The notes beneath the pieces are model-generated. The model did no database searches. It saw nothing but the letters and a program-made list of their open reading frames with translations, and had not been told where the DNA came from. The translations under genes were made by a program, and so were the position numbers. 6,595 bases of DNA, taken from IMG/VR virus record IMGVR_UViG_2778261689_000002; one strand, written 5' to 3'. The first letter of the stretch is position 1. Every line of letters begins with the position of its first letter. The stretch is from a virus (lineage: Duplodnaviria > Heunggongvirae > Uroviricota > Caudoviricetes). This document shows, piece by piece, positions 6,519 to 6,595 of the stretch.

Positions 6519-6595
6519 TGGATTTGCCCCTATATTTCCAGACATCTGTTATCACTTAACCCATTACAAGCCCGCTGCCGCAGATATTCCCGTGG
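6519..6595 (-). mobile_element. IS2 terminal inverted repeat (right end), with the element body extending beyond the window. IS2 is inverted relative to window coordinates.
   Basis: 6519..6595 (TGGATTTGCCCCTATATTTCCAGACATCTGTTATCACTTAACCCATTACAAGCCCGCTGCCGCAGATATTCCCGTGG) matches the IS2 right-end sequence as I remember it, and sits exactly where ybcO homology stops. Confidence 0.85.

Follow-up and report, generated by a model that had tools for sequence, protein, structure and literature searches.

An IS2 insertion in the last codons of ybcO, beside the predicted position of rusA, in a non-K-12 DLP12-type prophage of Escherichia coli

The Holliday-junction resolvase gene rusA of the DLP12 prophage is quiescent, and insertion of IS2 or IS10 upstream of it activates its transcription and thereby suppresses ruv defects (PMC1636454, PMC10956419, PMC2265524, PMC3533792); the preliminary description of the DNA analysed here had described a poorly expressed, IS-activated rusA, in agreement with these four papers. 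The rus phenotype is a RecG-dependent suppression of the recombination and UV-repair defects of ruvA, ruvB and ruvC mutants (PMC1636454, PMC2265524). The suppressor alleles rus-1 (IS2) and rus-2 (IS10) come from E. coli K-12 (Mandal 1993; Mahdi 1996, both as cited in PMC1636454 and PMC3533792). The review PMC9330008 covers hybrid promoters formed by IS2, for instance at acrEF and at ampC (Jaurin and Normark 1983). An outward -35 element is located in the right inverted repeat (IRR) of IS2, where it contributes to the minicircle junction promoter and to hybrid promoters such as that of ampC (PMC9330008, PMC3299598). The IRR is 41 bp long and its bottom strand has been published as 5'-TGG...TTAA-3' (PMC3299598). 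The junction promoter Pjunc requires a 17-bp spacer, which results from a 1-bp junction spacer (PMC3299598), and a weak inward promoter lies just within the left inverted repeat, IRL (PMC3299598, PMC9330008).

The window, which is the whole stretch of 6,595 nt analysed here (IMG/VR record IMGVR_UViG_2778261689_000002), resembles rus-1 in that a DLP12 prophage carries IS2 ahead of the place where rusA is expected. It differs from rus-1 and rus-2 in that its backbone is a non-K-12 DLP12 variant. With ampC and acrEF it would share an IS2 directly upstream of a poorly expressed gene; at those genes, however, the outward -35 of the IRR is combined with a resident -10, whereas here the IRL would face the gene and the hexamer on the IRR side, CCCTCT, is unfit as a -10. 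A further comparison is offered by E. coli EC931 (NZ_CP049118.1), in which an IS3 copy (L006, 3564-4826) follows codon 2 of rusA and is flanked by a 3-bp AAT duplication. Like the element in the window, it is an IS3-family member at the ybcO/rusA boundary with its IRR beside ybcO and its transposase antisense to rusA, but it is IS3 rather than IS2, lies 17 nt downstream of the window site and parts rusA from its GTG start.

When window positions 6200-6595 were searched against 5,426 complete E. coli genomes, every one of the approximately 2,900 alignments ended at query base 319 (window position 6518), and up to this base ninE and ybcO are 100% identical to K-12 and to about 2,900 other complete genomes. 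The 3' part of the window reads ...CTGGCTGAAAGAGGGG/TGGATTTGCCCCTATATTTCCAGACATCTGTTATCACTTAACCC..., with the slash at the ybcO/IS2 junction. Past 6518 the wild type (K-12) continues with GTTATTAAGGCGTGA, the end of ybcO with its TGA overlapping the rusA GTG start, and the window with TGGATTTGCCCC. The stretch from 6519 to 6595 is identical at 77 of 77 positions to an end of the 1331-bp element that is annotated in strain LD27-1 as 'IS3-like element IS2 family transposase', and at 76 of 77 to a K-12 copy of IS2, the sole mismatch turning the OrfB stop from TAA into TAG. It also matches a depositor-labelled 'insertion sequence:IS2' feature in the phage collection (49 nt at 100% identity) and has thousands of matches among E. 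coli genomes and plasmids. Such a complete match to a multicopy element, adjoining a 100% match to ybcO, is far beyond chance.

On the minus strand, positions 6595-6530 encode the C-terminus of OrfB (21 residues, PREYLRQRACNGLSDNRCLEI, followed by a stop), which is the same as the OrfB end of a full IS2; this stretch is therefore the right end of the element. The bottom strand at 6519-6559 reads 5'-TGG...TTAA-3' as published for the IRR (PMC3299598), and the orfB C-terminus ends inside this repeat. With the IRR against ybcO and a minus-strand transposase, the right-hand end of the element must be the IRL. The genome alignments and the IS2 match thus bear out the junction proposed in the preliminary description, with ybcO homology up to 6518 and IS2 from 6519, and the strand of orfB bears out its orientation, in which ybcO adjoins the right end and rusA is expected on the side of the left end. 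The features are listed in Table 1.

Table 1. Features at the ybcO/IS2 junction of the window and IS2 copies in the same segment of other isolates
Feature	Sequence	Coordinates	Strand	Length	Basis or remark
IS2 terminal stretch, right end	window	6519..6595	-	77 nt	77/77 to LD27-1 IS2, 76/77 to K-12 IS2
IS2 right inverted repeat (IRR)	window	6519..6559	-	41 bp	Sequence; length and reading from PMC3299598
IS2 orfB 3' end, with TAG stop at 6532-6530	window	6530..6595	-	Last 21 codons + stop	Minus-strand frame 0 translation, PREYLRQRACNGLSDNRCLEI and stop
Predicted target site AGGGG, left copy	window	6514..6518	.	5 bp	5-bp duplications at four other IS2 copies
Probable outward -35 hexamer (minicircle junction promoter of IS2), TGGAAA	window	6535..6540	-		Inferred placement
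ybcO, unaltered part; putative nuclease YbcO, PF07102	window	6243..6518	+	Codons 1-92 of 96	100% identity to K-12
Chimeric ybcO-IS2 frame, open to the window end	window	6243..6595	+	117 codons	Translation
IS2 in emrE	L002	4705-6035		1331 bp	Duplication GGGGA
IS2 in ybcK	L005	3631-4961		1331 bp	Duplication CAGAC
IS2 in ybcM	L004	6135-7465		1331 bp	Duplication CCGAA

The frame that starts with the ATG at 6243 contains no stop through 6595, so the ybcO frame does run into IS2 and acquire a chimeric C-terminus, as had been predicted from the sequence at the outset. When a canonical 1331-bp IS2 is spliced in, the stop is predicted 8-10 nt past the window, a position beyond the window that would follow from this reconstruction. 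The predicted product has 120 aa, consisting of 92 native and 28 IS2-encoded residues (...KEG/WICPYISRHLLSLNPLQARCRRYSRGER, then the stop); the native C-terminal VIKA, replaced by WICPYISRHLLSLNPLQARCRRYSRGER, comprises the only YbcO residues lost. The Pfam YbcO domain (PF07102) covers residues 3-93 of the native protein and residues 3-92 of the chimera (E=2.4e-42), which retains the profile up to position 91 of 92. The initial statement that IS2 truncates ybcO was accordingly right about an altered C-terminus and too strong in the word 'truncating': the truncation is minimal because four C-terminal residues are lost and the domain is nearly whole. Neither the 120-aa chimera nor the 117-aa partial product had an exact match among about 15 billion proteins.

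The gene rusA itself would lie beyond the window. The preliminary description expected it as the next gene, and in each of the four annotated relatives examined (K-12, LD27-1, P13-6 and UMNF18) it does come after ybcO, the two overlapping by 4 nt. The ybcO/rusA boundary is carried by 2,821 complete E. coli genomes, and a 98-nt wild-type probe centred on the insertion point showed it to be continuous in 2,814 of these; a broken boundary is thus rare (7/2,821). EC931, mentioned above, is one of the seven genomes with a discontinuous boundary. In uninterrupted relatives, 11 nt separate the insertion point from the GTG of rusA, and IS2 would be 16 nt from this codon if a 5-bp AGGGG duplication is added. 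The four complete IS2 copies examined are all 1331 bp long with a 5-bp duplication (GGGGA, ATTAC, CCGAA and CAGAC). To the right of 6595 we infer a full IS2, the AGGGG duplication and rusA. In the predicted right junction, AGGGGGTTATTAAGGCGTGAATACC would come after the left end of IS2, ...GATTCAGGGGGCCAGTCTA, with a rusA-side flank of AGGGG-GTTATTAAGGCGTGAATACC; a search for the IS2 IRL plus 0-12 nt plus GTTATTAAGGCGTGAATACC gave no match in genome contigs, complete genomes and metagenomes. The insertion falls within a G-rich, Shine-Dalgarno-like run, GAGGGGG (window 6507-6518 plus the predicted flank), 11 nt before the rusA GTG. An AGGGG duplication would restore AAGGGGG ahead of rusA, and the AAGG nearest the GTG is only 1 nt away from it.

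The backbone of the window is not that of K-12 DLP12. There is no IS3 in ren, which is intact (1104-1406), and 666 nt of exo/P that are deleted in K-12 are kept (130-795; window 1-1406 compared with K-12, L001 709-2707). Over 1193-6518 the window and K-12 differ by two SNPs only (4603 G/A and 5613 C/T), and strains TUM12357 and A134_1EC match it at 100% identity throughout bases 1-6518. The host is evidently a non-K-12 E. coli with a DLP12-type cryptic prophage. The ren gene without IS3 and the 666 extra nt of exo/P led to the rejection of a K-12 origin and hence of the laboratory rus-1 allele; because the backbone is not K-12, the insertion is considered an independent natural event. The DLP12 copy in the window is less decayed than the K-12 copy. 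The exact ybcO/IS2 junction was absent from the 5,426 complete E. coli genomes, the GTDB species representatives and the metagenome contigs, and also from viral contigs, plasmids and phages. LD27-1 and other genomes that cover the full window at 100% were rejected as carriers of this allele: they have IS2 in emrE instead, and the coverage is made of non-collinear pieces joined together.

Placed on the minus strand, TGGAAA would probably be the outward -35 and would point leftward into ybcO, away from rusA. The hexamer at -10 spacing from it is CCCTCT, which matches TATAAT at one of six positions, and with this hexamer in the -10 position the possibility that IRR and ybcO form a hybrid promoter at their junction was rejected. 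The arrangement typical of IS2 hybrid promoters, an IRR -35 located 16-18 nt from a resident -10 and directed into the activated gene, is absent here, the IRR facing ybcO. A consensus promoter scan of an equally oriented IS2 revealed no plus-strand promoter inside the element; its two hits were outside the element or spanned its IRR junction. A relaxed scan yielded a single outward site toward rusA, the weak TTAAGA-17-GATATT (8/12), 30 nt inside the IRL. No intrinsic terminator was found in the scan of the equally oriented IS2. The chimeric ORF is predicted to end 87 nt into IS2, and a read-through transcript would then traverse about 1.2 kb of IS2 in antisense and without translation, where polarity would be expected. 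Because the only outward -35 documented for IS2 belongs to the end away from rusA and no convincing promoter leads out of the IRL, activation of rusA by this insertion seems unlikely. Such an effect, suggested in the preliminary description, is conceivable in principle, but the orientation of the element speaks against it. The most likely outcome for rusA would be neutral or polar, the gene most likely being left silent or more silent rather than activated.

It is proposed, as the probable explanation, that a full IS2 has simply inserted in the last codons of ybcO in a non-K-12 DLP12-type prophage, an event that would be neutral and would probably leave rusA unactivated. Copy-out/paste-in transposition would have brought the element into this site with its IRR adjoining ybcO, its transposase antisense to both ybcO and rusA and its IRL toward rusA. 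In YbcO, VIKA would give way to 28 IS2-encoded residues; the overlap of the ybcO stop with the rusA start (GTGA) would be lost, and 1.3 kb of IS2 would come between rusA and the upstream nin-region transcription. The insertion would represent a neutral event, IS2 having targeted this cryptic prophage repeatedly. In the same 6-kb stretch of other isolates, IS2 is found in emrE (five genomes, LD27-1 and four others), ybcK (UMNF18 and EC06) and ybcM (P13-6). These insertions differ from that in the window in their target genes, none being beside rusA, and ybcO-rusA is intact there; as they arose independently, IS hits are commonplace in this DLP12 segment. Taken in this way, the insertion is, on the available sequence, real but ordinary, another example of IS2 in a cryptic prophage, and its main use is as a strain marker. 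Five genomes share the emrE allele, and their backbone matches the window at 100% identity.

A natural activating allele like rus-1 is an unlikely reading, although published genetics show that IS2 or IS10 upstream of rusA activates it (PMC1636454, PMC10956419, PMC2265524, PMC3533792) and rus-1 itself proves that an upstream IS2 is able to do so. No more than 11 nt separate the insertion point from the expected start of rusA, so that the start codon and the nearby purine-rich sequence would be spared, with a Shine-Dalgarno-like AGGGGG preserved at that distance, and the weak site inside the IRL would face rusA. Against these points, the documented outward promoter element is in the IRR and directed away from rusA (PMC9330008, PMC3299598), and the standard scan detected nothing toward rusA inside an equally oriented IS2. 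The rarity of interrupted boundaries would suit an activating allele and is equally compatible with a recent neutral hit. If rusA were activated, the insertion would be a natural counterpart of the classic laboratory suppressor and the left end of IS2 would be able to drive neighbouring genes. The specific version of this idea, in which a wild isolate carries a natural equivalent of rus-1 with the left end of IS2 facing rusA from 16 nt upstream and an undocumented outward promoter on the IRL side switching the gene on, is improbable; if it were true, a backup Holliday-junction resolvase would have to be under selection in nature.

The nature of the contig bears on two further readings. The IS2 tail is exactly 77 nt long, and window 1-77 is a lambda-exo segment present in up to 5 copies per genome. 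Two 77-nt multicopy ends are what a short-read de Bruijn assembly with k=77 would leave on a contig that runs from repeat to repeat. The window is therefore probably a whole contig, and the insertion would be at its edge because the contig stops where multicopy IS2 starts; the window thus appears to end here for a technical reason. With one junction visible, position 6518 might instead be the boundary of an IS2-mediated rearrangement (adjacent deletion, inversion or IS2-IS2 recombination) with rusA not on the far side. Several IS2 copies are evidently present in the genome, since the contig stops at a repeat, and the predicted right junction matched nothing in any collection searched. That missing junction says little, however, because the left junction is absent as well, and each of the four IS2 copies examined is a simple insertion flanked by a 5-bp duplication; we regard a rearrangement as improbable. 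An assembly or sampling artefact, either a chimeric join or a minority variant of a subpopulation rather than a fixed insertion, is highly improbable. It would agree with a window that ends in a repeat and with the lack of an independent sequence carrying the junction in the collections searched, but the sequence switches to IS2 precisely with the first base of its terminal repeat, as real transposition predicts and as a random chimera would rarely do, and a mixed population would normally break a de Bruijn contig at 6518 instead of 77 nt into IS2.

Apart from these questions, the OrfB stop is TAG in the IS2 of the window and in LD27-1, and TAA in the K-12 copy beside yaiP (L003, around 2131). 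The A/G polymorphism is 12 nt from the IRR tip (window 6530-6532), within the transposase-binding terminal repeat.
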